A stretch of 64,000 nucleotides of DNA from a virus (lineage: Duplodnaviria > Caudoviricetes). The notes beneath the pieces are model-generated. The model did not search any database, was not told the origin of the DNA, and saw only the letters and a program-made list of their open reading frames with translations. The translations under genes were made by a program, and so were the position numbers. Of this stretch, positions 2,834-60,313 are shown piece by piece (the first letter of the stretch is position 1; each line of letters begins with the position of its first letter). The DNA is taken from the IMG/VR virus record IMGVR_UViG_3300020577_008405, positions 3,069 through 67,068 of that record. One strand, given 5' to 3'.

Positions 2834-3101
2834 GTGTCTTAAAAGAATGCAATCACTTACTCCAATGTTTGAGGAGTTGATTGCATTCTTATTGCAGGAA
2901 TTCTTGTTATCTAAAGAAGAATTAAAAGCAATTAAGGTTTCTCCAGAACAAGCAAGAATGCTTCAAGCAAAATTAGCAACCCTTTCTGATGAGAGGTTGT
3001 TGCAGCTTTTAGAGTATGAATGGACTCTTCTACCGACTGAGCGAATCCGAATTAATATTGTAACTGATCGCGGTTTTAAAGAGTTCATCGCTGAAACATA
3101 A
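2808..3101 (+). CDS. Hypothetical protein
   Basis: ORF in gene run. Confidence 0.55.
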   Translation: MRNTKREVECLKRMQSLTPMFEELIAFLLQEFLLSKEELKAIKVSPEQARMLQAKLATLSDERLLQLLEYEWTLLPTERIRINIVTDRGFKEFIAET

Positions 3102-24963: not shown

Positions 24964-25087
24964 AGATAGTGCTGACCATCTAGTTGCGTTTGCGAACACC
25001 CTATTAAAGTTATTCCCGCAAATAACTAAGTGGGATTTGTATACTATCGAAATCATTCGTTTTAGTAAAAGGTGGAGTTCTGATTAA
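24926..25087 (+). CDS. Microprotein, LFP variant (53 aa)
   Basis: MRTISKK...FANTLLKLFPQ. Confidence 0.5.
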   Translation: MRTISKKTPIFIKDSADHLVAFANTLLKLFPQITKWDLYTIEIIRFSKRWSSD

Positions 25088-25112
25088 AAATAAAGATAGA
25101 ACTGAACAAATT

Positions 25113-25238
25113 ATGAATGGCGGACTTTACTTTAATCGTTTCTTTTGGGTACTTGCTGCCTTGTTTCCTAAGCATGATGTTTGGTATGAACAGCTTTCAG
25201 CAGACGAGATTCGCTTAGCTTCAAAACGAAATGTATAG
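25113..25238 (+). CDS. Microprotein, LFP variant (41 aa)
   Basis: MNGGLYFNR-FFWVLAALFPK. Confidence 0.55.
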   Translation: MNGGLYFNRFFWVLAALFPKHDVWYEQLSADEIRLASKRNV

Positions 25239-25266
25239 TGTATATTAGTTTTTAAACGAGAACAAA

Positions 25267-26280: not shown

Positions 26281-26281
26281 A

Positions 26282-26476
26282 ATGTTTGAAATACAAACAA
26301 TCCATAATAGTGTTAAGAAATTTTGGATTGTGTTGTATCGTTTAGAACTAATTTCGTATGATGTAGCTATAATTCTAGTTGCTTTAACTTACGATCGCCA
26401 TAACTTCATTTTACGATGGCAAAACCAAAAAAAAATCAGAGAATGTATAACTAAAATATATGAAAATTCTTGTTGA
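26282..26476 (+). CDS. LxL-motif microprotein (64 aa)
   Basis: FWIVLYRLELIS. Confidence 0.7.
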   Translation: MFEIQTIHNSVKKFWIVLYRLELISYDVAIILVALTYDRHNFILRWQNQKKIRECITKIYENSC

Positions 26477-27038
26477 TATGGATGGAATTGTTACTGATAC
26501 GCTTCCAGCTTGGTTGAAGCGTATTTACGAACTTACTGGTGTTTCTGTTGAGCCAGAGAAAATCCAGAAATGGAATCTTTGTGACAATCCGCCGCTAGAT
26601 AAGCTCGATCACAAACTTATTGTTGATATCTTAAACGAAAAAGATTTCAACATCAATCTGCCGCAAATGGCTGATGCTACTTATTATCTTAAGCGTCTTC
26701 ACGATGCTGGACATGATATCAGCATTGTAACAGCAAGACACGGAATCACCTGTATTTCTGAAACCATTCAATGGCTTGAAATCATGATGCCGTGGTTTAA
26801 TGTTGCTAAGAAAACCTGGTTTTGTTATGAAAAACACAGGATTATTGCTGATGTACTCATTGATGATAAAGCTGAAAACTTAATTGAGTACCGCAAAATG
26901 CACCCTAATGCTCATTTGATTACGATTGACTATATCTTTAATAAGCATGCGCCTAGTGATACTAAGCGTATCTTGAAGAATGGATATGAGTGGGAAGCTA
27001 TTGAAAGCTATATCACTAAGCTCTCTAAAAAGGACTAA
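26460..27038 (+). CDS. 5'(3')-deoxyribonucleotidase (HAD)
   Basis: DMDG, IVTAR, LIDDKAEN. Confidence 0.9.
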   Translation: MKILVDMDGIVTDTLPAWLKRIYELTGVSVEPEKIQKWNLCDNPPLDKLDHKLIVDILNEKDFNINLPQMADATYYLKRLHDAGHDISIVTARHGITCISETIQWLEIMMPWFNVAKKTWFCYEKHRIIADVLIDDKAENLIEYRKMHPNAHLITIDYIFNKHAPSDTKRILKNGYEWEAIESYITKLSKKD

Positions 27039-27767
27039 ATGAAATACGAAAACATTCATGAAGCATATACAGGAGTTTTGAAAGACGTCTATAATAATCC
27101 TGATTATCGAGCTGCACCTCGTGGCCTTCCTATTCGAGAGAAAGTGGATTATTCTTTTACGGTATTAAATCCAACATCTGAGCCAATTAAAACGGCAGAT
27201 GTCGAAAGGAATAATGTCATTGCAGACTATACAAGAAAAGAATTCAATCTTTATGACTCAGGGTCTAATAAGGCTGCTGAGTTTGCTCAAGCTAGTAAGT
27301 TTTGGGAAAAACTTGCAAATCCAGATGGAACTATCAATTCGGCTTACGGCTTTTTATTATGGAGAAATTACAGTTGCACCTCCAACTTTAGTAATCGCGC
27401 CATGACTCCTTGGGAGTGGGCTAGAGAGTCTTTACAGGCAGATAAAGATACTCGCCAAGCAATCTTAAGGTTCAATCTACCTGAGCATTGTTGGATTGGT
27501 AATAAAGACTTCACTTGTACGCTTACAGGTAACTTCTTAATTAGAAATGACAAGCTCTTTCTGACGATGGTAATGCGGTCTAACGATGTCGTATATGGAC
27601 TTACATATGACCTTCCTTGGTTTTGCAGCTTAATGGACAAGATGTTAGAAGAACTAAAGCCAACTTATCCGAATCTACAGAAGGGTACATATACGCATTT
27701 CGCCCATTCTTTACATATGTACGATAAAGATGAAAGTACGATTAAGAGCATGTTGGGGATAAGTTAA
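27039..27767 (+). CDS. ThyA-fold enzyme, dCMP hydroxymethyltransferase-like
   Basis: DFTCT...FLIRND...MRSNDVVYGLTYD...HSLHMY; Asp at the position of ThyA Asn177. Confidence 0.75.
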   Translation: MKYENIHEAYTGVLKDVYNNPDYRAAPRGLPIREKVDYSFTVLNPTSEPIKTADVERNNVIADYTRKEFNLYDSGSNKAAEFAQASKFWEKLANPDGTINSAYGFLLWRNYSCTSNFSNRAMTPWEWARESLQADKDTRQAILRFNLPEHCWIGNKDFTCTLTGNFLIRNDKLFLTMVMRSNDVVYGLTYDLPWFCSLMDKMLEELKPTYPNLQKGTYTHFAHSLHMYDKDESTIKSMLGIS

Positions 27768-28252
27768 TGGCAAAAGGTGAAGCTAGACAAAAAACCTGTT
27801 TGACTTGTAATTCTAGCTTCACCGCTCACAGAAGCGATGCTTGTTTTTGTAGTTTCCGATGTATGAGAAATAGTCCAAGCAATAAAGAATATTTACAGAA
27901 ATACAATAAATCATTTAACGGAAAATGGACACAAATTGTCAGTAAATGTAAGAAACTTGGTCAAGAGTTAGGATTAACTAGAGAAGAATGCATTGAATTA
28001 TGGCAGCAACCATGCCACTATTGCTCTAAGTCTTTAGATGGTGTACAAGGAATTAGTTTAGATAGAATTAATAATAATCTGAGTTATATTAAAGGCAATG
28101 TGCTTCCGTGTTGTGGAATTTGCAATAAAATTCGCAATACTTTTCTCACTGTAGAAGAGATGGAAGTAGCTATGAAGGCCGTTCTTGAATTTAGAAAGTC
28201 TAAGATGATTGGTACTGTTGCAGTACCTTTAGAAGGTAAACCTCTATGTTAA
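27767..28252 (+). CDS. His-Me finger (HNH-like) homing endonuclease
   Basis: CHYC...SLDRINNNLSYIKGNVLPCCGICN. Confidence 0.8.
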   Translation: MAKGEARQKTCLTCNSSFTAHRSDACFCSFRCMRNSPSNKEYLQKYNKSFNGKWTQIVSKCKKLGQELGLTREECIELWQQPCHYCSKSLDGVQGISLDRINNNLSYIKGNVLPCCGICNKIRNTFLTVEEMEVAMKAVLEFRKSKMIGTVAVPLEGKPLC

Positions 28253-28506
28253 GTGTTTGTGTATTTATTGTAGTAGTTTTTCGTTGGTGGTTTTTTGAGT
28301 GGTTACTTGGAACTAAGCGAATGCTACTTTTAGATAGTTTGTTATTTACTATTGGTGCTGCAATGTTTTTTGCTGACCCCAAGAGTGGATTTTTTAATTA
28401 CCTTGTAGGTAGTTTTTGTGTTTTTATCGCATTACACTCAAGCATTCGTTATATGCGATATGACAATTTTATTAAAGGAATTAAGGATGGAAACGCTAAC
28501 AAATGA
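28246..28506 (+). CDS. Small multi-pass membrane protein
   Basis: Three hydrophobic segments. Confidence 0.55.
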   Translation: MLSVCVFIVVVFRWWFFEWLLGTKRMLLLDSLLFTIGAAMFFADPKSGFFNYLVGSFCVFIALHSSIRYMRYDNFIKGIKDGNANK

Positions 28507-29218
28507 ACAATTTGAGAAAGTTGAAGAATTAGATTCTGTAATTGAGGGAGTACAGAATCTAAAAGAGAAACTTGCGCACTATCAACTTAATAGTGTTTAT
28601 TTGTTTGAGCGAATTGATTACTTCAACCCTAAAAACACGTGGGTTGAAAAAACCCACACGGGATTCCCTATCAAATACAAAGTTGTTTATATATCAAAAA
28701 CTGGCGTACCTTATCTACGACGTATTTCTGTAGCTGGAAATCCAGTTGGTAATGCTTTTATTCCACCAGAAGCACTTGCGATTCAAGCTTTAACAAATGT
28801 AACTAAAAATGAAACCTTGTTAAGCGGGAATTCAATTGTTGCTCGTTTTATCCCTGACCCAGAGCAACTTGATGCAATTCTTCTTCAAGAAGAATTTGAT
28901 CCTATGGAGCAACATAGAAAAAAGTCTCAACTTTTTAATGAGATCAATAAACACAATAAATCAGTCTTAGTCCGTACTGGTTCTGATTACAACAGTATTG
29001 CTACGTTTTTTAAGAACTTGCAACCTGGTGATAAGTTTTGGACTTCTGTAGAAAAACAGTTTGTTATTCAATCAGTTGTTAAAGTTAATCGTGAGTATGT
29101 AATTACTTGTACTGATCACAATCAAGCAACTGTCGAATTTCGTTTCAAAGATTTTATGTATAAGCGGCTATATTCTGCTCAACCGCGATCTTTCCGCAAA
29201 GAGACTCGAAGTGAATAA
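28487..29218 (+). CDS. Hypothetical protein, paralog of 34114-34866
   Basis: YLRRISVAG, RFIPDPE, LQPGDKFW. Confidence 0.75.
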   Translation: METLTNEQFEKVEELDSVIEGVQNLKEKLAHYQLNSVYLFERIDYFNPKNTWVEKTHTGFPIKYKVVYISKTGVPYLRRISVAGNPVGNAFIPPEALAIQALTNVTKNETLLSGNSIVARFIPDPEQLDAILLQEEFDPMEQHRKKSQLFNEINKHNKSVLVRTGSDYNSIATFFKNLQPGDKFWTSVEKQFVIQSVVKVNREYVITCTDHNQATVEFRFKDFMYKRLYSAQPRSFRKETRSE

Positions 29219-29375
29219 CAAACTGAGACCTGAAAAAATACGTCGAAAAATAGGTTATCTTCGACATATGAATGCACGAAATCCTACATCTGGAGCAAAT
29301 AGAAATACTTGGACTGTGTTTTGGATGATCTTATATAAGTTAAAATTAACTACTAAACTGCATTACCACTTCTAA
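29211..29375 (+). CDS. LxL-motif microprotein (54 aa)
   Basis: GTG start overlapping upstream stop; FWMILYKLKLTT. Confidence 0.65.
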   Translation: MNNKLRPEKIRRKIGYLRHMNARNPTSGANRNTWTVFWMILYKLKLTTKLHYHF

Positions 29376-29408
29376 TCCGAATCAATATTTCTTCACAAGG
29401 AGATACAC

Positions 29409-29840
29409 GTGTCCACACTGCCGAATGTAGTTTCTACTCCCGTTGAGCCGGTTTCTGATGAACAGAAGGAATTTCTCGCTGAGGCTGAAGTTATGGACCT
29501 CGGACCCATCAAAGGCAAGACGTATGTTGTTGCTGTTGGTACGGGTGATCCCAACAAGGTGAAGTTTCTTTGTTCAACAATTCACGGTCCTTACGATTTC
29601 ACTGAGATGTGCCAAGAAGTTGGCGAAATGTGGGTTCAGCATCAGCATCATGCTAAAGTAATCATCATGGAAAAGGATCCTAAATCTCGTGTTCTTTTGC
29701 TTGATGCGAACACGATTGATTACATTGAAGCCCACTACGTAGACATTATCATGGAAGAGACGTTGGCTGGTTTCCAAGATAAGGAGTTTACGTGCAGCGC
29801 TGGCACTATCGAAGAAGCTCCTTCTGAAGAAAAGAAGTGA
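29409..29840 (+). CDS. Hypothetical acidic protein
   Basis: AAGGAG RBS, GTG start. Confidence 0.75.
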   Translation: MSTLPNVVSTPVEPVSDEQKEFLAEAEVMDLGPIKGKTYVVAVGTGDPNKVKFLCSTIHGPYDFTEMCQEVGEMWVQHQHHAKVIIMEKDPKSRVLLLDANTIDYIEAHYVDIIMEETLAGFQDKEFTCSAGTIEEAPSEEKK

Positions 29841-29841
29841 C

Positions 29842-29988
29842 ATGACCACAACGAGCCAATTACTACGATGGTTACATATGGCTCATTTTCTTTCATTTAT
29901 TCGGACTATAAAGTTAATTAGAAATCACACTGGTACTGAAGCATTAATTCTGGAGTATAGACGTATATGTCCGCCTCTAGAACCATAA
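29842..29988 (+). CDS. LxL-motif microprotein (48 aa)
   Basis: FLSFIRTIKLIR. Confidence 0.6.
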   Translation: MTTTSQLLRWLHMAHFLSFIRTIKLIRNHTGTEALILEYRRICPPLEP

Positions 29989-30152
29989 CTTCAAAAATTC
30001 TTTTAGATAGTCATCTTAAAACATTTAATTGGTTTTTTTGGATTTTGAGGGAAACAGGTCTTATAAAGAAAATGACCTTCTATGAGATAACTCATAATAC
30101 AGCTAAAGAATTTTATGGTGCGCGCATCACTTCAACACTTAAAAGCTTTTGA
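29967..30152 (+). CDS. LxL-motif microprotein (61 aa)
   Basis: FFWILRETGLIK. Confidence 0.65.
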   Translation: MSASRTITSKILLDSHLKTFNWFFWILRETGLIKKMTFYEITHNTAKEFYGARITSTLKSF

Positions 30153-30240
30153 TTATCTTCTTTGGTGTATATTTAGATTAAAATTAATAAGCAAGAAGAG
30201 TATGGATGACACATATTCGCGTTCGCGCTTTTTAAGATAA
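30115..30240 (+). CDS. LxL-motif microprotein (41 aa)
   Basis: LLWCIFRLKLIS. Confidence 0.65.
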   Translation: MVRASLQHLKAFDYLLWCIFRLKLISKKSMDDTYSRSRFLR

Positions 30241-30244
30241 AGTT

Positions 30245-30377
30245 ATGACTAGCTCACTCAAATCAGAACAATGGTTGTATTTTGTGCGTTTTTTTCCGAT
30301 CACTTATCTATTTAAAACTAATTGATCCCGTAACGAGTAGTATTTCATTAAAGAAAGCACATAATCGTACTCTTTAA
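30245..30377 (+). pseudogene. LxL-motif microprotein frameshifted at a T7 run
   Basis: Removing one T from 30289-30295 gives MTSSLKSEQWLYFVR-FFRSLIYLKLID-PVTSS... Confidence 0.55.
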
Positions 30378-30383
30378 AATAAA

Positions 30384-30542
30384 ATGACTCGGGAACAATT
30401 AGTTTTGGCAGATTATTTTTTGTCACTTGGTGTGCTTTTAGGACTCTTTTCTCGTAAAGCTTCAAACACAGCCTGGTGGAGAGTGCGTGATCGAATGGCA
30501 CGCAATGAGCCTGGATTAGGTAAACTCCATGAAAGACTTTAA
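30384..30542 (+). CDS. LxL-motif microprotein (52 aa)
   Basis: FLSLGVLLGLFS. Confidence 0.55.
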   Translation: MTREQLVLADYFLSLGVLLGLFSRKASNTAWWRVRDRMARNEPGLGKLHERL

Positions 30543-30699
30543 AAAACTATCTCGTCGTGATCAGCATTCTTGGATTGATGTTATGGATAGTTATCTTATG
30601 TTCTGCTGTAAACTTAATCTTATTTCAAGCGAATGTAATGCAGCTTGTTGGGATTTTGTGGTTGATAAGTATTTAACAAAGGCAAGAAAATATGACTGA
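30529..30699 (+). CDS. LxL-motif microprotein (56 aa)
   Basis: YLMFCCKLNLIS; overlaps orn start. Confidence 0.6.
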   Translation: MKDFKKLSRRDQHSWIDVMDSYLMFCCKLNLISSECNAACWDFVVDKYLTKARKYD

Positions 30700-31213
30700 T
30701 TATCTTTGGGCTGATTGTGAAATGACTGGGTTGGACAATAAAAACTGTCGAATTATCGAAGTTGCATGTATCCTCACTAAGGACGATCTTGTTCCTTATA
30801 GTCAATTTGAAGCTATTGTTTATCAAAATCCGCACGTTGGATGGGAACAAGTAGCTAAGGAAATGCATAAGAAGAGTGGTCTTTTTGATTTAATTCAAAA
30901 CGAAGGATTAGACGAGCGTGGTGTAGTTGCTGAACTTGTGTTTTGGCTTAAAGGCAATGTTGGTACGAATTTAGTTAATCTTGCTGGCAATTCTGTTCAC
31001 TTTGATCGTGGTTTTCTAATTGAACAATGGCCGGAAATTAAGCCCTTTTTGTCGCATCGTCATCTTGACGTTAGTTCATTCAAGATTTATGCAGAAGGAC
31101 AAGGAATTAAGAAGTTTAGTTCCACCTTGCCTGCTCATCGAGCTATGGATGACATTGAACACTCGATCAAGGAGTTTAAGTATTACTTAAGTGAATTAAA
31201 GAAGCTCCCATAA
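30692..31213 (+). CDS. orn: Oligoribonuclease (DEDDh)
   Basis: WADCEMTGLD, AGNSVHFDRGFL, HRHLDVSS, HRAMDDI. Confidence 0.9.
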   Translation: MTDYLWADCEMTGLDNKNCRIIEVACILTKDDLVPYSQFEAIVYQNPHVGWEQVAKEMHKKSGLFDLIQNEGLDERGVVAELVFWLKGNVGTNLVNLAGNSVHFDRGFLIEQWPEIKPFLSHRHLDVSSFKIYAEGQGIKKFSSTLPAHRAMDDIEHSIKEFKYYLSELKKLP

Positions 31214-44085: not shown

Positions 44086-46272
44086 TTATGCGTCGGTTGT
44101 GCGAATCGCTGTTGCGCCGCCGCCTGCTGAACCAAGGGTCGCAGTCGTCTCGAAGGTCTTGATCGGCGTACCGCCACCGTCACGAACTCGAACGAAGAGC
44201 GAGCGATCGGCCAAGTAAACAACCGTGAAGGCTTCTGAAGCTGCACCAGCAAGCTTATCAATATAACTGATAAACGTATTATTGCCAGTAGTTGCCTGAT
44301 TAACACCAGAGAAGTCTGTTGCGCCAATAGTGAATGTTGATCCAGTAAAGCTTGTGTAAGCTACTCGACGATAAACACCCGTGTCTAATAGAATACGAAT
44401 TGTTCCAGTAGCGGGCGTATCAGTTGGAATCGCGGTATTTACCACAACTGAAGTTACTGCAGCACCTGAAAGTGTGCCGTTAAGCGTGAACTGATTGAGT
44501 TGTAGTGTACCACCAGATTCTGGACCGACAAGAACGCGGTCTTCAGTAGAGACCAAGCCACCGAGTGTAAATGTAACGTTGTTAGGAGGAACTCGTTGAG
44601 TATTAGTGAGGTCAAAGAGTTTATCACTTGCTGATAGGTCAGCTGTTTCAACACCAATACCATAAGCACCGATGAGAGCAGAACCAGTCGAAGCACCAAG
44701 GAATGGATATGAGAGGCTTCGCTCTGTAGCAGTGCCAGAAGTTGTACCGGTCGCTGCAGAAGTAACACCAGTAATAGTAACACCAGTACCAGGTGCTGTG
44801 CCTGTAAGAAGTTGAATCCACATCTTTGTAGATGCAGCAACTGAGTCAACGGCTAGAAGGATGCCTGTTCCGCCGGCCCAAGAAAGACGTTCAACTGCAC
44901 TGAACGAACCTGCTCGAGGGGTTGTCATTGTAAGTTCGTGCGTGATACCACGGAAGAGTTCACCAGGAACAGTATAGAGTTTGTGGCTAGCATGTACTGA
45001 GAATGTCAAATCGTCAGTTGCAGTTGCTGCCCACGTACCGGTGTTCTGTGAACGGTTACCTGCGTGAGTACCTGATGTCGCAAGACCACGAACATGTAGA
45101 TAGTTTGAAGCATCACCAGTATATTCGACAGAGATAGTATAGTTCGTCGAAGCTACCATTTCATACGGGGTTGAGAAAGTGAATTCAACTGTTTGATACG
45201 CACCAGTAATAGATGCAATTGAAACGTTAGCAGAAGTAGCGAGCGCAGCACCTGTTGGGACTGATGAAGTACCAAATGTACCAGAGTGAGCGTAAAGTTT
45301 AGCAACTACGTTACCTGCCACAGAAGGCGCTCCAGCACCAATCTTTAAATCAAAGAATGCGCGAGTAAGATATTGTGCATTTGTTCCGTTAGCAAATGAC
45401 TGTGCTTGACCAGTGATCGTACCGTTACCAAGGTTAAAGTTGGTTCCAACATCGGCGCATGAAGATTCTACTGTTGCGCGACGTGATAAGTACTTAGCAC
45501 GTTCAAAGAGTTGGTTGATTGTAAATGTAGCTCTATTCCATTCAGAGTAATATCGTTCAACCACCGTATTGTTATCAACATCTAGAGAACGATATCCTTC
45601 AGTATTGCTAATAGTTGTCCAAGTCTTGATAGTGGCCGCAGCAGTAGCATTGTTAAGGTCATCTGAGTATTGTAAAGCGAAAACGTTGTTACCGCGCGAA
45701 GTACCGTTGATCTTGAATTCAGAGAACGTTTTACCCATTTCGCGGGTTTGGCCAATAAGTCGACGACCATCAATATCTGCTGCACCAGAACGTACTTTTA
45801 CCATAAAACGATGGCTAATACCTTGTGTTGCATCTGCATTGTATGCAGTAGTCCAGAAGTTAGGAGAGATGGCTGCACCGTTCTGAATAACTTGAAGATA
45901 AGTACCAGCGGGAGCGAAACATACGATACCGTCATAGATAGTATCGCCGTTCGACTGTACGATCGAACCATCGTACAAGAATCGAGCTGTATAGTCATCA
46001 ATGTTATAGCCGTTTACGAGCGTCACAAGGTTGTCCGTTGCGCGCTGTGAAGCGTCAACATCTGTAATATCTAGAATGTCGTTGCCGGCAGCTTGGGCAT
46101 CATCCATCAAGTCGCCAAGCCAACGGTGAAATGCAATGACTGTGTAAGTCGCTCCTGATCCTACATATCGAATTGCGCCTGATGCGCTAACGCTGAAATC
46201 GTCGGCAATAGCCATATATATCACTCCTAAAAGTTGTAACTTGATAATTATAACGGTTACCAAGTTAGACAT
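44086..46272 (-). CDS. Large putative tail/virion protein
   Basis: T/G/A-rich; probable start MAIADDF after AGGAG. Confidence 0.75.
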   Translation of the reverse strand: MSNLVTVIIIKLQLLGVIYMAIADDFSVSASGAIRYVGSGATYTVIAFHRWLGDLMDDAQAAGNDILDITDVDASQRATDNLVTLVNGYNIDDYTARFLYDGSIVQSNGDTIYDGIVCFAPAGTYLQVIQNGAAISPNFWTTAYNADATQGISHRFMVKVRSGAADIDGRRLIGQTREMGKTFSEFKINGTSRGNNVFALQYSDDLNNATAAATIKTWTTISNTEGYRSLDVDNNTVVERYYSEWNRATFTINQLFERAKYLSRRATVESSCADVGTNFNLGNGTITGQAQSFANGTNAQYLTRAFFDLKIGAGAPSVAGNVVAKLYAHSGTFGTSSVPTGAALATSANVSIASITGAYQTVEFTFSTPYEMVASTNYTISVEYTGDASNYLHVRGLATSGTHAGNRSQNTGTWAATATDDLTFSVHASHKLYTVPGELFRGITHELTMTTPRAGSFSAVERLSWAGGTGILLAVDSVAASTKMWIQLLTGTAPGTGVTITGVTSAATGTTSGTATERSLSYPFLGASTGSALIGAYGIGVETADLSASDKLFDLTNTQRVPPNNVTFTLGGLVSTEDRVLVGPESGGTLQLNQFTLNGTLSGAAVTSVVVNTAIPTDTPATGTIRILLDTGVYRRVAYTSFTGSTFTIGATDFSGVNQATTGNNTFISYIDKLAGAASEAFTVVYLADRSLFVRVRDGGGTPIKTFETTATLGSAGGGATAIRTTDA

Positions 46273-46987
46273 CTACGATTGTAACAGCGAGATTAGTCAA
46301 GTTGCCATTACCGTCATATGTAAAATCTTCAACACGCTTCTTTGTCCCAATAGTTGTTTCAATTTTTGTAACGTTACCAAGCGTATATGTATACACTACT
46401 GATCTAGCCACAAATCCAGTTTGTAGTACATCTACTTTTAGGGCCTTAGTTCCGGCCACAGTAGAGATTCCAACTGTATCAGTACCATCTGAGACTTTAA
46501 CAGGCCAAGCATTAGCATTGGTATTTGCTGCTCCCTGACCCACTGTATCAACTGTAATAGGCGGAACAGTAAGTGTTGCACTAGTAGGAAGTGGATTTGC
46601 GGCATTAATCTTGTTGCCTTTCTCATCGACAAGAATGGTTCGCTTGGCTACTAATGGCTCTTCTTCATAAACTGCGCGCTCAAAGTCATCACTTGTTACA
46701 AGTGGTCGTCTTTGTTCATTAGCAAAAATTTGGGCAGTTGCTGCTGTAGTGTAAGCAGAAAGATCAGTAAAAGCGTTTGGACTACCTTGGATAGGTCCTA
46801 CAATCAACTCAGTAGCACTTGAAACTCTTTTAACTTCGAGTTCAAGATTCACTTGACCTGTTGCAGTAATAACTACAAGTTGTTGGACTCTAAATGGAGT
46901 TGTATCAGCGATCGTGACAGAGCCATTAGCTCCACCGTTCGCTGTAAAAGCTTGTGCTTGTATTGCAGCTAATCGTTTCTCAAACAA
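46265..46987 (-). CDS. Putative virion protein
   Basis: TTG start after GAAGG; YD-like C-terminus. Confidence 0.65.
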   Translation of the reverse strand: MFEKRLAAIQAQAFTANGGANGSVTIADTTPFRVQQLVVITATGQVNLELEVKRVSSATELIVGPIQGSPNAFTDLSAYTTAATAQIFANEQRRPLVTSDDFERAVYEEEPLVAKRTILVDEKGNKINAANPLPTSATLTVPPITVDTVGQGAANTNANAWPVKVSDGTDTVGISTVAGTKALKVDVLQTGFVARSVVYTYTLGNVTKIETTIGTKKRVEDFTYDGNGNLTNLAVTIVDV

Positions 46988-47002
46988 AACAAACCTTCCT
47001 TC

Positions 47003-47506
47003 TTAGTATCCGTCGTTACCTCTGCCGCTATCATTAATCTTAATTCTATCCCAGTATTCTCTTTCTTCTTGCTCATTCTTGAATCGTTGACTGATAGGTT
47101 TAGTAGCTTCTATGAGCCAATTATTAATTCCTTGACCCCACTCTGATTCAGCTTTATTCATATCTTCTTGAGAAGAAAAACCATTTTGCTGTGCCCACAT
47201 ATTTCTTGCGGCAGCTGCCATTTCTTGATTAGAAGGTTGACCTGGAGTAGGACGTACACCGAGAGCGCCACCTTTTTGCAATTGATTAGCTAAACGTTGA
47301 GCATGTTGCTGTTCTAATACTTCTTTAGCTTTTGCTAAAACCTGTTCACGATTCAACTTTGAAACAGGCTTATTGAACATTCGAGCAACATCGGCTGCTG
47401 CACGCTGAGCGGGCGATAAGGTTTCTTCGTCAGCGAGGGCTTTCTTTAATACCTTAAAGCGATAAATCAAGTCACCTAATTCTTTATTAATCTCGTCCTT
47501 CGTCAT
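47003..47506 (-). CDS. Hypothetical (putative head-associated) protein
   Basis: Structural cluster. Confidence 0.7.
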   Translation of the reverse strand: MTKDEINKELGDLIYRFKVLKKALADEETLSPAQRAAADVARMFNKPVSKLNREQVLAKAKEVLEQQHAQRLANQLQKGGALGVRPTPGQPSNQEMAAAARNMWAQQNGFSSQEDMNKAESEWGQGINNWLIEATKPISQRFKNEQEEREYWDRIKINDSGRGNDGY

Positions 47507-48851
47507 TGTCTTCCTCGCTCTTTTTAAGTGGCTTCTTAGGTGGATTCTTAGCTTCTTTTAGCTTTTGTTCATGCTTAATGCCAGAAATCTCACCTTTGTG
47601 TTTTGCTTGTTCTTTCAGTTGCGCTTCCATCATCTTAAGTTTTAATTCATGTTCACGCTTTTTGAATTCAAGTTCAAGCTTTAATTCTTCTTGATGTAGC
47701 CTTAATTCCAACTTCTTCTTTTCTACCTCAAGCATTTTTAACTCGCGATTAGCTTCAGCATCACCTTCAGAACCATCTGATTGCTCAGATTCTTTCTTAG
47801 CTCGCTCGTACTCGAGATCTAACATACGCTGCTTATGAGCTGTCTCGAGAGCAGCAGGATTATTGCGCTGAGCTTGTTCGTGCTCAACATCAGCCATTCT
47901 CTGCTTGTGAGCAGCATCCTGATCAAGCAATGCATGTTTCTTTTGTGCCTGTTCAAACTCGAGATCTTGCATGCGCTTTTTGTGTTCACGTTCGGCAGCT
48001 AGACTTTGTTCGTTATGTGAATGTTCTAGTTCAGCTGACTTCTGAGCATTCGTAACATCGATATTGGACATTGCACGAGTTGCTTCGGCCTTCGCAGCCT
48101 TACTCTCGTCGATCTCAGGAGCATGATGTCCATGAACGATATATGCAATTTCTTGCTCTGAATATCCTTCTTCAGCAAGTGCTTCCATAAGTTCCTGAGG
48201 ATCAACGGGTAAGTCTCCGTTGCCTTCTTCAGGATTTTCTTGATCGGGCTGTTCTTCTTGTCCTTCTTCAGAACCTGCTGACACTGCTTCGGGTGGACTC
48301 TCGCCACCTTCCATTTGCTCAGCTTCACCAGGAACTTCCTGTCCTTCAACTGGTGGAGCTTGCGTTGCTACATTACCTTCTTCAGGTGCAGGTTCGTCAT
48401 CACCCATTGCTTCCTCTAGACTCATGAATGCCTTATTGTGGTCTAATGCTTTCTTGAGAGCATTCCAGCGAGCCTTAGGATCCTTCTTTAGTGGCTCTGA
48501 TCCTTGTACGACTTCTCGCTTACCATCAGAAGTTATATCTAACATTTCTTCCTTAATAACTGCAGTAGGATTGTTTCCTAAACGCGCAATTTCTTCTGGC
48601 GAAAGTGTTTTCACTTTACCACTTAACGCTTTTCGGCGTTTTAACGTATTCTCAGCAGCAGCTTGCTGTTTCGCTGAAAGTTGACCAGCTTTTGTACTAT
48701 ACGCCTTAACATTCTTATTAGTACCCACTTCAACCACATCACCAGTGTTCCGAGCTTTTCGCTCTTGATTAGCATGAGCTTGATATTGTGCACCGGCTGC
48801 AGTACCTGGAGGACCATAGGCGCTCTTCTTCATATTCGCGTCATCTGACAT
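47487..48851 (-). CDS. Acidic/coiled-coil putative internal head protein
   Basis: HKxRMxDxExExA repeats; LKKA/LKKS motifs. Confidence 0.7.
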   Translation of the reverse strand: MSDDANMKKSAYGPPGTAAGAQYQAHANQERKARNTGDVVEVGTNKNVKAYSTKAGQLSAKQQAAAENTLKRRKALSGKVKTLSPEEIARLGNNPTAVIKEEMLDITSDGKREVVQGSEPLKKDPKARWNALKKALDHNKAFMSLEEAMGDDEPAPEEGNVATQAPPVEGQEVPGEAEQMEGGESPPEAVSAGSEEGQEEQPDQENPEEGNGDLPVDPQELMEALAEEGYSEQEIAYIVHGHHAPEIDESKAAKAEATRAMSNIDVTNAQKSAELEHSHNEQSLAAEREHKKRMQDLEFEQAQKKHALLDQDAAHKQRMADVEHEQAQRNNPAALETAHKQRMLDLEYERAKKESEQSDGSEGDAEANRELKMLEVEKKKLELRLHQEELKLELEFKKREHELKLKMMEAQLKEQAKHKGEISGIKHEQKLKEAKNPPKKPLKKSEEDNDEGRD

Positions 48852-48863
48852 TTTATTATCTCC

Positions 48864-49688
48864 TTACAGGTACGACAGCAAAAATCTCTTCTGATAATGA
48901 CCACGTGCAGCTTCTTTTTGACATTGAACAATTTTTTCAAGTTCTGACAAACGTTGCTGTAAAAATGCTGGTCCAGCTGTTCCAACACTTTGTGATGTTC
49001 CATCAATACTAATACCAACTGAAGAATAAGGAAACAAAACAGGACCTAAAGTTGACAGAAATCTATATGCTGCTAAGTTTTCAATCAGTCCAGCTAATAA
49101 TGCGGGAACTTGACCTTCTGGGAAACCAGCTGTATATTCAACAAGAATAGCACCTGGCCAACTAGAAATTTGTTGGCTATTAAAGGCATGATACCCCAAA
49201 CCACTATACACGCTAGCGACAAATCCAGAAATACTTACGCCAGTAGCAGGAACAAGCTGTACCGTTCCGTCTTGTGGTTGAACATGAATAAACTCTAAAG
49301 GCATATCAACTAATGGATTTGTTGCTTGTCCATTATTAAAAGTAAGTTGGAACTTATTTACATTTAAGATTGGTGCATGATGAAGTTGTAAATAGCCAAA
49401 ACTCCAAAATTGCATTTCACGATTATAATCGTGACGTTCAGCAAATTGAGTTGGAGTGATATAAAGATCAAGTTCATGCTCAATTTCAGAAATACTTTCA
49501 GCAATATATGTTTCCAAGGTAGCATCTTCTACTGTTTCACCAGTCAACCTAGATGTCAAAGGAATACCGAACAAACTCTGCTTCTTCATTTTTGCTGCAG
49601 TAGGAATAGGCAAGTACCGATTAGCACCATTTTGATCAATAGCCCATGATGGAAAAGGTTGAACCTGATTTGTTTTAGAAATTGTCAT
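48864..49688 (-). CDS. Putative head-tail connector/neck protein
   Basis: SEIEHEL, VEYTAGF, GISIDGTSQS pattern; AGGAG RBS. Confidence 0.55.
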   Translation of the reverse strand: MTISKTNQVQPFPSWAIDQNGANRYLPIPTAAKMKKQSLFGIPLTSRLTGETVEDATLETYIAESISEIEHELDLYITPTQFAERHDYNREMQFWSFGYLQLHHAPILNVNKFQLTFNNGQATNPLVDMPLEFIHVQPQDGTVQLVPATGVSISGFVASVYSGLGYHAFNSQQISSWPGAILVEYTAGFPEGQVPALLAGLIENLAAYRFLSTLGPVLFPYSSVGISIDGTSQSVGTAGPAFLQQRLSELEKIVQCQKEAARGHYQKRFLLSYL

Positions 49689-51478
49689 TATTCGTCTCCT
49701 TCGCCACCAGATGAATACTTAATGTTTGTTAGTTTTGGACCAGTTTGCTTAGGTGCTGCGACTGGCGTAGGTACTGCTGGTTGAGCTGCTTGACGTCGAA
49801 CAATTGGAGCACGAACCGCCGTAACACGCTTAAATCTATCCTGAATATCAGGGTGATGTTGTTGCACAATTTCTGCCACTGACTTTTTAGGAATATTAGC
49901 AGCAGGATTAATAATCGTGGTGACGCCTTCTTTATTCGTATGCTTAATTGGTGCAGCATTTTCAGCACGACGTTGCGCTTCAAACTGCTTAGCACCAGCC
50001 CGCATCGTAGTTGGAATTTCGTCTTGTCCCTTTAAAGCTGTTTGCATCAAACCACGCATTTTATTCGCAAGATGTGTTGTGAACTTTGCCTTACTAGCGT
50101 GATTATGGTCATAGTCATTGATAGCTTGGAATAAAGCATGCATACCGGCTTCATGCAATACACCAGCATCAATTTCTCCTCGTTTGGCTTTTTCACTAAG
50201 ACCAAGTTTACCGAGTACGTGACGCGCTGCCTTACCAATTTGTGGGTGGTATCTTGCTACGAATTGATCAACTGCGCGCTTCTTAGCAGGATCCTGGAGC
50301 GTTGGGTGATCTCCTAGCACAGTATTAACATCTGCACGAGTCTCTTGCTCAGGAGCATCCCAATCGGCTGCTTCAGAAAACTTCTTACCTTTCTTATTAT
50401 AATTCTTCATATACTCTTGAACGAATTCTTGATGTCCAGAAGCAAACTGTGCGCTTTTGTCTTGCTGAATACCGCTTGGTGCGCTATCTTCATCTTCACG
50501 ACCGCCACCGACATGTTGAATACCTTCTTCAACAGACATGGCTCCGGGTTGAGCACCACCACTTGCAATGTGACGAAGCTTTTCATCTTTCATTTGGTTA
50601 AAACGCGAAAGAGCTTGACTACCTTTCTTGTGAGCTTCATGATGTGAGCTTAATGCATTCATCAAGTGCTGAGGGTTTTGCTTATTCCAATCATCGTGGA
50701 ATTTACTCTCCATTTCCATTTGAGTAATTGGATCAGCATTCTGAAAATCAGGTGATTGAGAAAAAGCATTGTATGCTTTTTGACGATCTGCATGTGACAA
50801 GTTTCGCGCTTCAATTAAACGTCCTTGATGATGTTGGACAGGATTAACATGCGCTTCAGCTTCTAATCTAGCTTTATCTCTTGCACGTGAAGCCCATGGA
50901 CGTGTATATTCACGCATTTGAGTAAGTTCTTCAGGAGTTGGTTGCAAGTCACCAGAAACTGATTCTTCTGACTCTTGGGGCGGTGGAGTTGGAGCAGGTG
51001 GAGTTATCCCTTGGCGACGAACTATTGGTCGCCGAGCCGATTGTTTTTCGTCAGATTCGCGTCCTATTGTAGGTTTATCCACAATAGAAGGACTAACGCC
51101 TTCACCACGTTTTGGTGACCATTTATCAGGAGCAATAACAGAATCAGCTCCGTCATATCCTTCTTCTTCACCTAATAATTGAGCTTCTGGCTCTTCTTCA
51201 AGAGGTTCAGTTTCACCATCTGAATCTGCTGATTCTGTTTCGCCATGTTCTGCTAACCATCGGTCTGCATCATCACCTTCATCGAAATTTAACTCAGGAT
51301 CTTCGGGAACTTCTTCTTGTTCATCCTGGTCCGAATAGTCAGGATTCTCGTCTGAGAGGCGACGTCTAGCCTTCTCTAAAAATTCTTTTACAACTTCTAA
51401 TGTATTAGGTTCCCAAGTTGACATATTATTTCTTCCCGCCTTTTGTTGCAGCGTATTCTCTAAGACCTGGAATTCCAT
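49688..51478 (-). CDS. Low-complexity protein with embedded sigma70 region-2-like domain
   Basis: YHPQIGKAAR...LHEAGMHALFQAINDYD...KFTTHLANKMRGLM. Confidence 0.7.
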   Translation of the reverse strand: MEFQVLENTLQQKAGRNNMSTWEPNTLEVVKEFLEKARRRLSDENPDYSDQDEQEEVPEDPELNFDEGDDADRWLAEHGETESADSDGETEPLEEEPEAQLLGEEEGYDGADSVIAPDKWSPKRGEGVSPSIVDKPTIGRESDEKQSARRPIVRRQGITPPAPTPPPQESEESVSGDLQPTPEELTQMREYTRPWASRARDKARLEAEAHVNPVQHHQGRLIEARNLSHADRQKAYNAFSQSPDFQNADPITQMEMESKFHDDWNKQNPQHLMNALSSHHEAHKKGSQALSRFNQMKDEKLRHIASGGAQPGAMSVEEGIQHVGGGREDEDSAPSGIQQDKSAQFASGHQEFVQEYMKNYNKKGKKFSEAADWDAPEQETRADVNTVLGDHPTLQDPAKKRAVDQFVARYHPQIGKAARHVLGKLGLSEKAKRGEIDAGVLHEAGMHALFQAINDYDHNHASKAKFTTHLANKMRGLMQTALKGQDEIPTTMRAGAKQFEAQRRAENAAPIKHTNKEGVTTIINPAANIPKKSVAEIVQQHHPDIQDRFKRVTAVRAPIVRRQAAQPAVPTPVAAPKQTGPKLTNIKYSSGGEGDE

Positions 51479-52784
51479 TCATAATAGTTTCGTGATGCTG
51501 CGCTGGTACATGCGCTAAAGCTTGATAAGCAGACTCTAGAGGATGTACGGGTGCAGTAGGTGCTACTGCCGCTTTAGGTTCGGCAGGTTTTACCGCAGGT
51601 GTAACTGGAACTTGCTTTCTAATAGTTACACCTTTTGGTGGCGCACCTGGTGCAAGGTGACGAATTGATTTAGGCAAAGCGTCAACGTTAATTTCAGGTT
51701 GTGTAGCAGCCTCTGGTGCTGCAGAAGCTTGAGTTTTTGTTGGCGTAACTGGTGTAGCAGTCGTAGTTTTCGCGGCAGCGGCAGCTTTTGCGGCAGCTGC
51801 TTCTGCATACTTCTTAGTGTGTCCAGGTGATTCGGCGAGCGGAATACCATCATAAAAATTAGGTCCCTTTGTTTGGCCACGCTTCTTATAACCCTCTGGA
51901 TCGGCAGTAAATTTAGCTTTTTGACCTTCCATCCATTTTTTGTGATGTTCACTACCACGCCAGCCAGTATGCGCATTTGCAAAGTTTTGCATAGCTTCTG
52001 GCGTCATATGATCCGCTTGAATATCAGCCACCCCGCGAATAGGATGCATATCGAATTCGTGTGGGGTGTAATCTTGTTTATTAGGCACATCTTCGATATG
52101 TAGATATGCCTTCTTTGCATCAATATCAGCAGGAGAGCCAATCTGAACTTCTTCCCATGGATATGCGCCTTTGTGGGGCATTTTGCCAACTGCTTCATGT
52201 CCAGGATGTGGAGCCATTTCTAAATAGTGATAATCAGGAATAGAAGTTGATAAATCATGATCACGCTTAGCACCCTTAGAAGGACGGGCGCGTAGTAACT
52301 TAGCATCTCGCTTAAACCGTCCACTAGGAACTCTTTCTAGAGTAGTATAGTTAGTTTCCCACGGTGCTAGAGGTGGGTAATCAATACCAAGTTTACCTTG
52401 GGAGTGAGCTGATGCTCGAGCCGTCAAGTGCATTAAAGGAATAGCATGTTCAAGATGCTGATCTGCAACTTGGCGAAGATGGCTTTTTTGCTTCTCATCG
52501 GTTGCAGCATGATGCGCCTTTAAAGCCGCCTTATAATGTGATAAGTGATGGCTAAGTGCATCACGAAGTTGAGTTGTATCAGTTCGATCTAAGTTAGCAC
52601 CAAAGCTAGTTAATGGAGCATTAGCATTAATGCCAGTAAGATGAGTAGGCTTAGCCATCTTCTCAAGAGCATCAACAACTGAATTAACAAAAGAATCTTC
52701 TTCGATATTAGCTAACAGTTGAAGAAGACTAGTATTGCCATCCGCTTTTCGTAAAAGGATGGCCTTGAAAGAGTCAAGTTCCAT
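51426..52784 (-). CDS. Putative internal virion protein
   Basis: His-rich; Ala/Pro/Thr tail; structural cluster. Confidence 0.7.
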   Translation of the reverse strand: MELDSFKAILLRKADGNTSLLQLLANIEEDSFVNSVVDALEKMAKPTHLTGINANAPLTSFGANLDRTDTTQLRDALSHHLSHYKAALKAHHAATDEKQKSHLRQVADQHLEHAIPLMHLTARASAHSQGKLGIDYPPLAPWETNYTTLERVPSGRFKRDAKLLRARPSKGAKRDHDLSTSIPDYHYLEMAPHPGHEAVGKMPHKGAYPWEEVQIGSPADIDAKKAYLHIEDVPNKQDYTPHEFDMHPIRGVADIQADHMTPEAMQNFANAHTGWRGSEHHKKWMEGQKAKFTADPEGYKKRGQTKGPNFYDGIPLAESPGHTKKYAEAAAAKAAAAAKTTTATPVTPTKTQASAAPEAATQPEINVDALPKSIRHLAPGAPPKGVTIRKQVPVTPAVKPAEPKAAVAPTAPVHPLESAYQALAHVPAQHHETIMNGIPGLREYAATKGGKK

Positions 52785-52793
52785 AGGTCACCT

Positions 52794-53111
52794 TTATGGT
52801 TGTAGTTTAGGACGCTTCTGTTCACGAGCAACTTGAACGAAAGCAGCAATAGCAGCAATAACCACTGTCACAGTGGATTTTGTATCATCAGGATTGCCGT
52901 CGCCAGTGTTAAAGACAATAATCTCGCCAGCAGACATAGTCGCAGCAAGAACACCATCAATTGTTACTGTAGTAGCACCAGTAGCCCTTACGCGAAAAGT
53001 TGAAGCCTTTGTCAGCTCTAAGGTACCAGTGTTGTTAGTAATTTTCTCTTCCCACGTAAGACCACTCTCAGATTGGCGAAGAGTCTCTGAAATAAGATTT
53101 GCTGTACGCAT
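52794..53111 (-). CDS. Small putative virion protein
   Basis: AGGAG RBS; beta-rich. Confidence 0.65.
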   Translation of the reverse strand: MRTANLISETLRQSESGLTWEEKITNNTGTLELTKASTFRVRATGATTVTIDGVLAATMSAGEIIVFNTGDGNPDDTKSTVTVVIAAIAAFVQVAREQKRPKLQP

Positions 53112-53112
53112 G

Positions 53113-53143
53113 TATAGCTCCTGTTAAACACCCAGGAGCTATA
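53113..53143 (-). promoter_or_regulatory. 11-bp hairpin occluding the RBS of 52794-53111
   Basis: TATAGCTCCTG-N9-CAGGAGCTATA immediately before ATG. Confidence 0.7.
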
Positions 53144-53161
53144 GTACCACTTGTGAAGTTA

Positions 53162-53181
53162 ATCCGAAAATGCTTTCGGAT
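53162..53181. terminator. Short hairpin after microprotein gene
   Basis: ATCCGAAA-ATGC-TTTCGGAT. Confidence 0.5.
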
Positions 53182-53324
53182 CACTTTCTTTTCTTCATCT
53201 TGACATTGTGAGTCATTTTATGAAATAGCACAATGAATTCACCAAGAACAGGATTGGAAATCAGTCCTAATCGTCGGAATACAATAAAAGGCGCCATATA
53301 CATGCGTACATGCTTATATTTCAT
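53181..53324 (-). CDS. LxL-motif microprotein (47 aa)
   Basis: TAATG coupling; PFIVFRRLGLIS. Confidence 0.65.
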   Translation of the reverse strand: MKYKHVRMYMAPFIVFRRLGLISNPVLGEFIVLFHKMTHNVKMKKRK

Positions 53325-54970
53325 TACAATTTCCAGCGCCCATCAATCATATTCACTAATTGACGTGAACCATCGCTATAAACAACACAGTGAGTTTGCA
53401 TCCAATTGCTCGGACCTTGGTTATAACCAAGTTTAAGGAAAGAAGAAGTCCCTACTGCAAATGCCCCATGCCAAATACCCGGACAATGACTATGACCGGT
53501 GACAGATAAGCCATATGACTTACGCATATTCTTGATATTACCCTTAGAACCTGCAGGGCCAATATCGCCATGAGCTCCTAATTGAATACCTGCTACTTTA
53601 AAATCTTCATCTCGTTGTAGCCAACGAATATTTTCGGCCTTAAGACCAACTTTTTCAGCACCAGTCTTAATTGGATCTTTTCCATCTAACATTGCCTTAG
53701 CGAGATCTAGAGAGAAATAATGATTTTGGGGATCGTGAGCATACTTAGCATACCGTAAGTAATCTTTTGACAAAAACTCATCATGATTAGACTTGATGAC
53801 AACTACTTCATCAACTTGTTTTGAGAACCAAGTTAAATCGTCACGAAGTCCAACAAATTCCTGCTCTAGAGACGGAACACCATTCATAAAATGCATTGTC
53901 TTAACGACAATATTATGCTCTTCGTGATGGTTAATAGACTTACCGTTAAAGGTATCGTGAAGAGCAACTTTCTTAGGTTTAAAGAAACCTAGCATCTCTC
54001 CTGTACACTTATAAACCATAGGATCGGTTTCACCTGAATGCCAATCACCACACACCAAGACTTCAGGAGCTTCGTCTACAATCCTGCCATCTGGATGATA
54101 GCGCTTACCAAAGTGAACAAAACTACCTTCTGCATTTAACATTTGAATCTGTGTGTAACCATATAAAGCATCATCAATAATGTTTACAAAAATTGCACCC
54201 ATCACATGATGCTTGTCGGCGATATAAGCTGTTCTCTCAGACATGTAATTTGATGTCACATAATTAGGTACTGTAATGGCACCTGTAGTCATCATGACAT
54301 GTGGCAACTTCTCATTAGACGTTGACTCAAGAGTCATACTCTGTTTAGGAGATGCGAACACAAAGCTACCTTCACGCTGACCAATATCACCAAGACCAGT
54401 AGTCGGATTGATTTGCTTTGCAGAGAGCTTAATGGTACTAATGAAGAAATTAGAATTAAGGTGAGTATCCTCAACAACTAAACAATCCTTAGCTAATCGC
54501 TGATCAATTGTGCCATATCCACCTCGATTATAAGTTTTATTATGAGCAGGATCAGAGGCAACTAAGACAAGCATTGCTGCTTTGTTCTGTTTGCAGAAAC
54601 TTTTTAAACTAGCATGAAAACCAGAATGTACAGCACATCCAGTAACTGCAGTAGTGATAATAAACTTTTTGTGCTGTTTTACTACCTTATGAAGTTTATC
54701 ACTTAAATCACTTTCATCCATTAAATCAACAATCTCAACATCAAAAAACTTTTTCGGAAATTCTTCGCGGGCTTCTTCTTCTAATTTTCCTAGCGAAGAA
54801 AAGTGATGCTTAACAGAATCTTTCGTGTGACCACGCTCGCATAATTCATCCATTTTAGGAGCACGGGAGAGCTCTTCAAATAGATCTGAAAAATCTACGA
54901 TGATTTGGTGCTTCTTGTCTTCACTTTCTGTCTCGTCTTTAACGGACTTCGGCGTCTTTGATTTACTCAA
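53324..54970 (-). CDS. Calcineurin-like phosphoesterase-domain protein
   Basis: GDWH, LHD, SNHD, HGD, GHSH. Confidence 0.75.
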   Translation of the reverse strand: MSKSKTPKSVKDETESEDKKHQIIVDFSDLFEELSRAPKMDELCERGHTKDSVKHHFSSLGKLEEEAREEFPKKFFDVEIVDLMDESDLSDKLHKVVKQHKKFIITTAVTGCAVHSGFHASLKSFCKQNKAAMLVLVASDPAHNKTYNRGGYGTIDQRLAKDCLVVEDTHLNSNFFISTIKLSAKQINPTTGLGDIGQREGSFVFASPKQSMTLESTSNEKLPHVMMTTGAITVPNYVTSNYMSERTAYIADKHHVMGAIFVNIIDDALYGYTQIQMLNAEGSFVHFGKRYHPDGRIVDEAPEVLVCGDWHSGETDPMVYKCTGEMLGFFKPKKVALHDTFNGKSINHHEEHNIVVKTMHFMNGVPSLEQEFVGLRDDLTWFSKQVDEVVVIKSNHDEFLSKDYLRYAKYAHDPQNHYFSLDLAKAMLDGKDPIKTGAEKVGLKAENIRWLQRDEDFKVAGIQLGAHGDIGPAGSKGNIKNMRKSYGLSVTGHSHCPGIWHGAFAVGTSSFLKLGYNQGPSNWMQTHCVVYSDGSRQLVNMIDGRWKL

Positions 54971-60280: not shown

Positions 60281-60313
60281 AGAAGGGCTTGGAGTGTTCG
60301 TCCAAGCCCTTCT
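60281..60313 (-). terminator. Terminator after capsid gene
   Basis: AGAAGGGCTTGGA / TCCAAGCCCTTCT 13-bp stem. Confidence 0.75.

Follow-up and report, generated by a model that had tools for sequence, protein, structure and literature searches.

The window analyzed here is a stretch of 64,000 nucleotides (nt) from a record assigned to the Caudoviricetes (IMG/VR record IMGVR_UViG_3300020577_008405, positions 3,069 to 67,068), and its source is an uncultured phage of about 170 kb. On the minus strand it contains an open reading frame (ORF) of 596 amino acids (aa) at 49688..51478. Since homologues begin at Met19 of this frame and that ATG lies one base past the upstream TAA, the likely gene, hereafter the target, encodes a protein of 578 aa (Table 1). 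Judging from its sequence, this protein is a partner protein, here called X, fused to a minimal sigma-factor module. X is restricted to this lineage and free of cysteine; its parts are an N-terminal helix, a disordered linker rich in acidic residues, a domain of helices and a tail motif of basic character. A previous sequence-only reading of this locus had placed a segment resembling sigma-70 region 2 at 50030..50270; the minus strand from 50030 to 50272 does translate as the peptide quoted there (VDQFVARYHPQIGKAARHV...NKMRGLMQTALK, residues 403-483 in the 596-aa frame), the codon boundary lying 2 bases beyond 50270.

Of 8000 candidates scored, 201 were homologues of the target at E ≤ 0.001. 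The contigs that carry them reach about 180 kb, and one homologue bears the source name 'specialized sigma subunit'. An exhaustive HMMER search yielded 102 clusters at 50% identity. No match was found in a phage collection of 50,697 records, either by tblastn with the target or by megablast with the surrounding 12 kb, and Foldseek against BFVD returned a single row at E ≤ 0.001, an uncharacterized 407-aa phage protein. An alignment of 36 sequences resolved four conserved pieces, i.e., the N-terminal helix, the middle domain, the C-terminal module and the short tail motif, with variable acidic linkers between them; in the N-terminal helix region L34, K36, D43 and E44 are invariant (596-aa numbering). 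A model predicted with AlphaFold2 from an alignment of 128 rows had a mean predicted local distance difference test score (pLDDT) of 76.8, with residues 160-540 mostly >90 and disorder at residues 30-155 and 541-578. The protein had earlier been described as mostly disordered, which was not borne out, pLDDT being ≥70 for 376 of the 578 residues and <50 for only 118. The target has two copies of the hexapeptide PIVRRQ, one per disordered region (51011-51028 and 49790-49807, minus strand). Judged by eye, P-x-[IV]-[RK]-[RK]-like copies stand at both of these positions in close relatives, and VTIRKQ is present in w452; the hexapeptide is possibly a short linear binding motif.

Table 1. Positions of the target, its predicted parts and adjoining features in the window.
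Feature	Position	Strand	Description
Spacer before the w105 block	53112..53323	-	212 nt; hairpin, extended -10-like element, inverted repeat
w105	52794..53111	-	first gene of a tightly packed block
w452	51426..52784	-	conserved, His-rich, cysteine-free; stop one base before the ATG of the target
Target, likely gene	49688..51424	-	578 aa
N-terminal amphipathic helix, conserved	51356..51406	-	aa 7-23, LEVVKEFLEKARRRL, then invariant D-E; helix in model
Acidic disordered linker	50960..51337	-	aa 30-155; 38 D+E vs 11 K+R; pLDDT 39-58
Helical middle domain of X	50387..50947	-	aa 160-346; pLDDT >90; common to short forms lacking sigma
Sigma module: sigma-70-family regions 2.1-2.4 and region 3.0 helix (by profile and model)	49955..50311	-	aa 372-490; includes 50030-50272
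Beta-hairpin and two helices with tail motif of partner	49805..49948	-	model elements E493-505, H516-538
Tail motif of X in the window protein	49811-49873	-	aa 518-538, HHPDIQDRFKRVTAVR
Disordered C-terminal tail	49691..49804	-	second PIVRRQ and Gly/acidic end
w274, head-tail adaptor-like	48864..49688	-	phrog_772 E 4.7e-34; phrog_442 'head-tail adaptor' E 3.8e-5

The sigma module

As a single sequence, the target matched no relevant Pfam or PHROG family, and Pfam Sigma70_r2 (PF04542) gave no match at E ≤ 1 with either the whole protein or a 136-aa segment of it. Just 3 of the 36 homologues touched that family, with a best E of 0.1. The resemblance to sigma factors is well beyond chance, yet in these comparisons it is visible only at the level of profiles. 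When the 36-sequence profile was run against 177,635 PDB sequences, the best matches were WhiG (6pfj_A, E 3.1e-8) and FliA (1.3e-7), and a 128-sequence profile gave FliA (9wsf_A, 4e-12), WhiG (1.6e-11), sigma-28 (6pmi_F, 5.4e-11) and SigB (8.4e-7), the majority of its 38 listed matches being sigma factors. The alignment to FliA spans residues 18-111 of 254, i.e., regions 2.1-2.4 and the first helix of region 3, and nothing further. FliA patterns are kept in the core-binding helix (AGM-GL), which is the part best conserved relative to FliA, and in the next segment (F-T-A...IRG-M). The predicted fold points in the same direction. The model has pLDDT >90 over the module, and in a structure search independent of Foldseek, 21 of the top 22 rows were sigma-factor chains, led by SigB (Z 9.6, root-mean-square deviation (rmsd) 3.8, 114 residues aligned), and including WhiG (Z 8.2), an RpoS fragment (Z 8.0, rmsd 2.8, 90/96 aligned), the SigE N-domain (Z 7.9, 78/80 aligned) and chain F of the T4 late-transcription complex 7D7D (Z 7.2). 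Foldseek against the PDB gave no row at E ≤ 0.001; its top rows were all sigma chains, WhiG having a probability of 1.00 but an E of 0.03. Since profile, fold and orthologue evidence (see below) agree, the region 2-like segment of the sequence-only reading was upheld, and we regard the sigma identity of the module, regions 2.1 to 3.0 and most like FliA and WhiG, as established.

Across the 36-sequence alignment, H469, K473, G476, L477 and A481 are invariant. We take H469 and K473 to correspond to Y430 and W434 of Escherichia coli sigma-70, and the Y430 position to be the one that stacks on the flipped -11 base. The residue equivalent to Y430 is His in the fused clade as opposed to Tyr in the free forms described below. 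In 17 of the 21 sigma rows of the structure search, the alignment begins at model residues 155-166 and resumes only from 379, which suggests that, in the predicted model, the middle domain packs its first helix against the sigma bundle at the place of region 1.2.

No region 4 was seen: Sigma70_r4 was absent from the families matched by the 36 homologues at E ≤ 10, and a six-frame search of five genomes with PF04545 matched only another small ORF. The C-terminal tail was considered as a vestigial region 4.2 and rejected, since it gave no Sigma70_r4 signal and since its motif belongs to X in short forms that lack the sigma module. A further, highly conserved protein of 134-146 aa with four invariant Cys and a C-terminal helix-turn-helix is encoded between the portal and prohead protease genes of related phages (L026:1255-1656, L027:1417-1821 and L034:13139-13546, the last in the complete relative G001), a position that lies beyond the end of the contig of the window. 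It has 1047 homologues, and 120 listed ones are 54-87% identical. Its Sigma70_r4 score was 21.9 bits, below the cut-off of 24.1, its PDB profile matched region 4 of SigA at E 1.2, and its model (pLDDT 61.6) had a best structural match of Z 3.7. This protein could be the region 4-like half of a split sigma factor, and any link to the sigma module is speculative.

The sigma module is free or fused in related phages

The sigma module is absent from distant members of the family (330-410 aa), which retain the N-terminal helix, the linker, the middle domain and, at their C-terminus, the tail motif. In 14 of 15 sister-clade loci, these short forms of X take the place of the target, flanked by homologues of w452 and w274, the 15th locus being too short to show the slot; the capsid protein of this clade is 65-72% identical. 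A short form gave a best PDB match of E 0.037 (a kinesin coiled coil), nothing in the Atlas and nothing below E 0.05 in PHROGs. When the sigma segment of the window was searched against five sister records, four complete and one 69% complete, each complete record had one match, which was a free ORF in three and lay inside a 503-aa frame in the fourth, G008; the 69%-complete record had no match. The G008 frame holds a 499-aa orthologue with a fused sigma module. In the three complete short-form genomes, the free sigma proteins are of 123, 134 and 159 aa and their genes adjoin a ClpP gene and a gene of 110-115 aa. The 123-aa protein, from G007, is matched by Pfam Sigma70_r2 with 38.1 bits (cut-off 24) and by PHROG 351 'RNA polymerase sigma factor' at E 7.8e-12, and by tblastn the free orthologue matched the module of the window at 49934-50299 with E 2.9e-10. 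In the reverse direction, the free sigma gave a single match per record in five long-form records, in every case within the large ORF, and in G001 there was no match beyond that ORF. These reciprocal searches of sister and long-form records show one sigma module per genome, fused or free, in 8 of 8 complete genomes examined. The trio of free sigma, ClpP and 110-115-aa genes lies at L059:257-1824, L061:1495-2870 and L062:335-1758, and G001 keeps the 115-aa gene (L028:18907-19248) without a sigma gene beside it.

The history of the fusion was followed in a maximum-likelihood tree of the adaptor protein encoded next to X. Out of 40 loci, rows covering <90% of w274 and duplicate sequences were dropped, leaving 31 rows, the window and 30 loci. 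The tree separates a long-form clade of 19 rows (support 100/100) from a short-form clade of 12 rows (100/100), and the fused G008 nests within a supported short-form subclade (96/92). An entire short form makes up the first part of the G008 protein, which aligns to P0174 over residues 22-345 of 353; its tail motif at 342-362 is followed by the sigma module at about 383-481. In the window protein the order is reversed, sigma (378-489) coming first and the tail motif (518-538) after it. The different order of the parts and the placement in the tree indicate that the fusion arose twice. Following the Rosetta-stone logic, such recurrent fusion argues that X and the sigma module work together.

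Neighboring genes and candidate promoters

The order w105, w452, target is kept in all 25 related long-form loci, with w274 next in 24 and the 25th ending inside the target; X always directly precedes the head-tail adaptor-like gene. The w274 ATG overlaps the TAA of the target by one base, and the target is translationally coupled to w274. Homologues of w274 occur in 727 phage records, mostly of Herelleviridae, and that of Myxococcus phage Mx1 covers 99% of it; likely structural genes follow. Like the target, short forms have w452 upstream in 14 of 15 loci. The conserved N-terminal ~330 aa of w452 contain many invariant His (H79, H80, H110, H193, H196, H242, H247) and no Cys, so that w452 is possibly a metal-binding protein; no Pfam or PHROG relative of it was found. 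As a candidate for the missing half of the sigma factor w452 was rejected, a PDB profile search giving nothing at E ≤ 10 and the Atlas no usable match.

The target abuts w274 and is found 8.9 kb from the major capsid gene, on its downstream side, which agrees in part with the earlier placement of it among head genes; however, the stretch from the capsid gene to w274 includes genes for thymidylate kinase, peptide deformylase, a GIY-YIG endonuclease, a polymerase-beta-like nucleotidyltransferase and a metallophosphatase, and in Mx1 the same stretch has thymidylate synthase and a dNMP kinase. Since such plain enzymes share it, its location by itself is no sign that the target is a virion protein. 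A 548-aa protein (53324-54970, minus strand), encoded between thymidylate kinase and the w105 block, matches phrog_1745 'DNA transfer protein' at E 2.2e-88, and is present in many, not all, relatives. A strong terminator-like hairpin of 13 pairs, 7 of them G-C, lies at 60281-60313 (minus strand), directly 3' of the major capsid gene and before the next gene, that of the GIY-YIG endonuclease. In Mx1 (L043, record 24404-30710), a 1479-aa 'NUDIX hydrolase' and a 619-aa 'kinase' are encoded directly past the adaptor homologue, and these large enzymes in a structural position are a possible parallel to enzyme or effector cargo in the lineage. The capsid protein of the window is about 32% identical to those of SPO1-like phages, and the only match of the terminase TerL was that of Mx1, with 28.7% identity. 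G001 (172.6 kb, with terminal repeats) is a myovirus with genes for sheath, baseplate, DNA polymerase, TerL, portal, protease and capsid.

No phage RNA polymerase was recognized in five complete genomes with PF00562 and PF00623, for both of which the controls were positive; PF00940 was also negative in these genomes, but its control was silent too. In 9,950 nt of G001 upstream spacers (L028-L036), TATAAT occurs 14 times on the sense strand vs 2.2 expected and GTATAAT 7 times vs 0.7, the expectations ignoring the AT-richness of the spacers; enrichment of 7-mers was weak. In G001, TATAAT often stands without a -35 box, e.g., before the sheath, protease and w728 genes. A motif of the TGnTAnnAT type is present in the spacers that precede w105 and the sheath and portal genes. 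In the window, the part of the spacer 5' of w105 (53112-53190) has a hairpin, ATCCGAAAGCATTTTCGGAT (53162-53181), then an extended -10-like element, TGGTACTAT, and then an inverted repeat, TATAGCTCCTG...CAGGAGCTATA, which would pair over the ribosome-binding site. From its sequence, this spacer is possibly a promoter combined with a translational control element.

Possible roles and comparison with known systems

Since no phage polymerase was recognized, the sigma module should act on the host enzyme, and since the free sigma, the capsid protein and the adaptor are related to proteins of Bacillus myoviruses, SPO1-like phages and Herelleviridae, the lineage would redirect host polymerase with a sigma factor of its own. 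Considering the sequence evidence, the most likely function of the module is to steer host RNA polymerase to phage genes, and the reading toward which we lean is that of a minimal sigma factor, like gp55 of T4, for host RNA polymerase, tied to X as a presumably obligate partner. The module would dock on the clamp helices of the beta-prime subunit and would read a -10-type element, perhaps an extended -10, without -35 contact, as T4 gp55 does, whereby the host core enzyme would be redirected to phage promoters. X would be the working partner of sigma, as a co-factor or a tether. No packaging into the virion is needed for any of this. Several observations weigh against such a sigma factor: X is without a known fold or family; neither a sliding clamp nor a gp33-like partner was seen among the 85 ORFs of G001; sigma-70-type promoter matches were not enriched, 34 being found vs 37.8 expected; the change from Tyr to His at the Y430 equivalent might alter promoter melting; and the candidate protein with four Cys is only weakly region 4-like and as such unproven. 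Moreover, a place in an apparent late operon, coupled to the adaptor, is odd for a late-gene switch, unless the w105 spacer has a promoter of its own.

Some of the same features would fit an inhibitor or a decoy, the latter an idea that the sequence-only reading had also raised. Such a module would recognize no promoter and would only sit on the beta-prime clamp helices, thereby silencing the sigma-dependent transcription of the host. The module has no region 4, it has His for Tyr where, by our presumed mapping, sigma-70 stacks on the flipped -11 base, and its core-binding helix is what it shares best with FliA. We consider a decoy improbable, and less likely than a working sigma because the positions that, by our presumed mapping, match the DNA-melting residues of sigma are invariant and there is one copy per complete genome. 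H469 and K473, surface positions of regions 2.3-2.4, do not vary; the region 3.0 helix, needless for a plain blocker, is kept in both fused and free forms; and a single copy in every complete genome looks like a core function. In addition, T4 gp55 shows that a region-2-only factor can be a true sigma (PMC7892883). That X is an anti-sigma-like holder, coupling sigma activity to assembly by analogy with FlgM and FliA and freeing sigma as heads use up X, strikes us as very improbable. The module is FliA-like, X is partly disordered and encoded in the head-neck block, and the predicted model packs a helix of X on the sigma bundle; the proposal is an analogy only, and the fused sigma would have to be released by proteolysis.

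Virion packaging we regard as a minority possibility. X would then be an internal virion protein ejected with the DNA, and the sigma fused to it would be loaded along and capture the host RNA polymerase core at the start of infection, which we regard as doubtful. The sequence-only reading had proposed a packaged and injected factor, and in its present form, i.e., a virion-delivered sigma for the host enzyme that acts before phage gene expression and evolved twice by fusion of a free sigma to X, that proposal is no better than tentative. The coupling of the target to the adaptor-like gene, with likely structural genes next, is in its favor, as is the scarcity of cysteine: the family has 4 Cys in 71,392 residues (any Cys in just 3 of 128 sequences), the w452 family 1 in 6,758, the short forms 0 in 3,684, and the block from w105 to w728 (46265-53111, minus strand) 3 in 2,998, with 1 Cys in w105, w452, the target, w274, w454, w167 and w240 together. 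Interleaved upstream enzymes (w548, tmk, w128, w175) have 1.5-3.1% Cys, and in G001 structural proteins mostly have <1% vs 0 to 3.75% in enzymes; however, low Cys is also typical of disordered, charged proteins, and the dUTPase and UvsX of G001 are low as well. Two independent fusions of sigma to X would suit a delivery vehicle, and the product of a late operon can act early only when it is carried in; yet sister phages keep their sigma free beside ClpP, outside the structural block, and the interval from capsid to adaptor has its plain enzymes. A precedent is the sigma factor Gp10 of Salmonella phage Arash, detected in particles by liquid chromatography-mass spectrometry, although Arash has its own RNA polymerase and 116 proteins are called 'virion' there (PMC10585845). 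Also against packaging, no cultured relative carries the gene in the phage collection searched, and when the 881 ORFs of the window and G001 were searched with a hidden Markov model (HMM) of the N-terminal helix, the target and its orthologue alone were matched, all others having E >1. The optional N-terminal extension is likewise confined to this family (11 matches from 20 candidates). Two ideas about the N-terminus were rejected: a capsid-targeting signal shared by w452, the target and w167, whose N-termini look alike by eye, since no other ORF among the 881 matched the HMM, and a mobile N-terminal tag, MPxF...KAK..., since it was found only within the family.

Phage sigma factors, and the region-2-only gp55, are textbook knowledge. 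What is new here is that a single phage lineage has one minimal sigma in two states, as a free protein or as a fusion with a particular uncharacterized protein, and that the fusion happened twice. This pattern names a partner for a minimal sigma, the pair being the short X and the free sigma of a sister phage. Virion-delivered transcription proteins are represented by the virion RNA polymerase of N4 and those of phiKZ and AR9 (PMC4496689, PMC7598289). As in these phages and in Arash, a transcription protein whose gene lies with late or structural ones could act from time zero, provided that it is carried in; those phages bring their own polymerase, whereas none was recognized in the five complete genomes of this lineage. 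If X were virion cargo, a sigma for the host enzyme would be delivered with the DNA, for which a limited literature search found no report.

Sigma function can also be divided between polypeptides: SigO and RsoA of Bacillus subtilis form a two-subunit sigma factor whose parts meet on the polymerase. Unlike in that pair, partner X has no recognizable region 4. Among phage sigma factors, those annotated in large Bacillus myoviruses such as Deep Blue, JBP901 and SP-10 are about 33% identical to the free orthologue, over the region 2 part only, and none of them is known as fused to a protein of the structural block; gp28 and gp34 of SPO1 are further sigma factors of such phages. The best matches are the cellular group 3 sigmas FliA/sigma-28 and WhiG (9WSF, 6PMI, 6PFJ, 1RP3), with which the module shares regions 2.1-3.0 and the patterns Y-PL, AGM-GL, F-T-A...IRG-M and D-IP. 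Unlike them, the window module comes from a phage, has an unrelated protein as its fusion partner, and lacks region 4 entirely as well as the remainder of region 3; in the fused clade it has His for the Tyr of T-Y-A.

In T4, gp55 consists of a sigma region 2 homology domain alone and has gp33 as its co-activator (PDB 7D7D), as described in PMC7892883. With its region-2-only factor and putative separate partner, the present system would resemble gp55, which contacts the clamp helices of beta-prime and recognizes a -10-like element although it has no region 4, and the free orthologues (123-159 aa) are similar to gp55 in size, the structural match having been found with Z 7.2. In contrast to gp55, the module is far closer to cellular group 3 sigmas (FliA, E 4e-12), ends in a region 3.0 helix where gp55 has a helix-loop-helix, has no clamp-binding motif or clamp gene seen among the 85 ORFs of G001, and in the window is embedded in a protein of 578 aa. 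Should X turn out to act as a co-activator, the problem for which T4 uses gp33 would have been solved a second time, by unrelated means.

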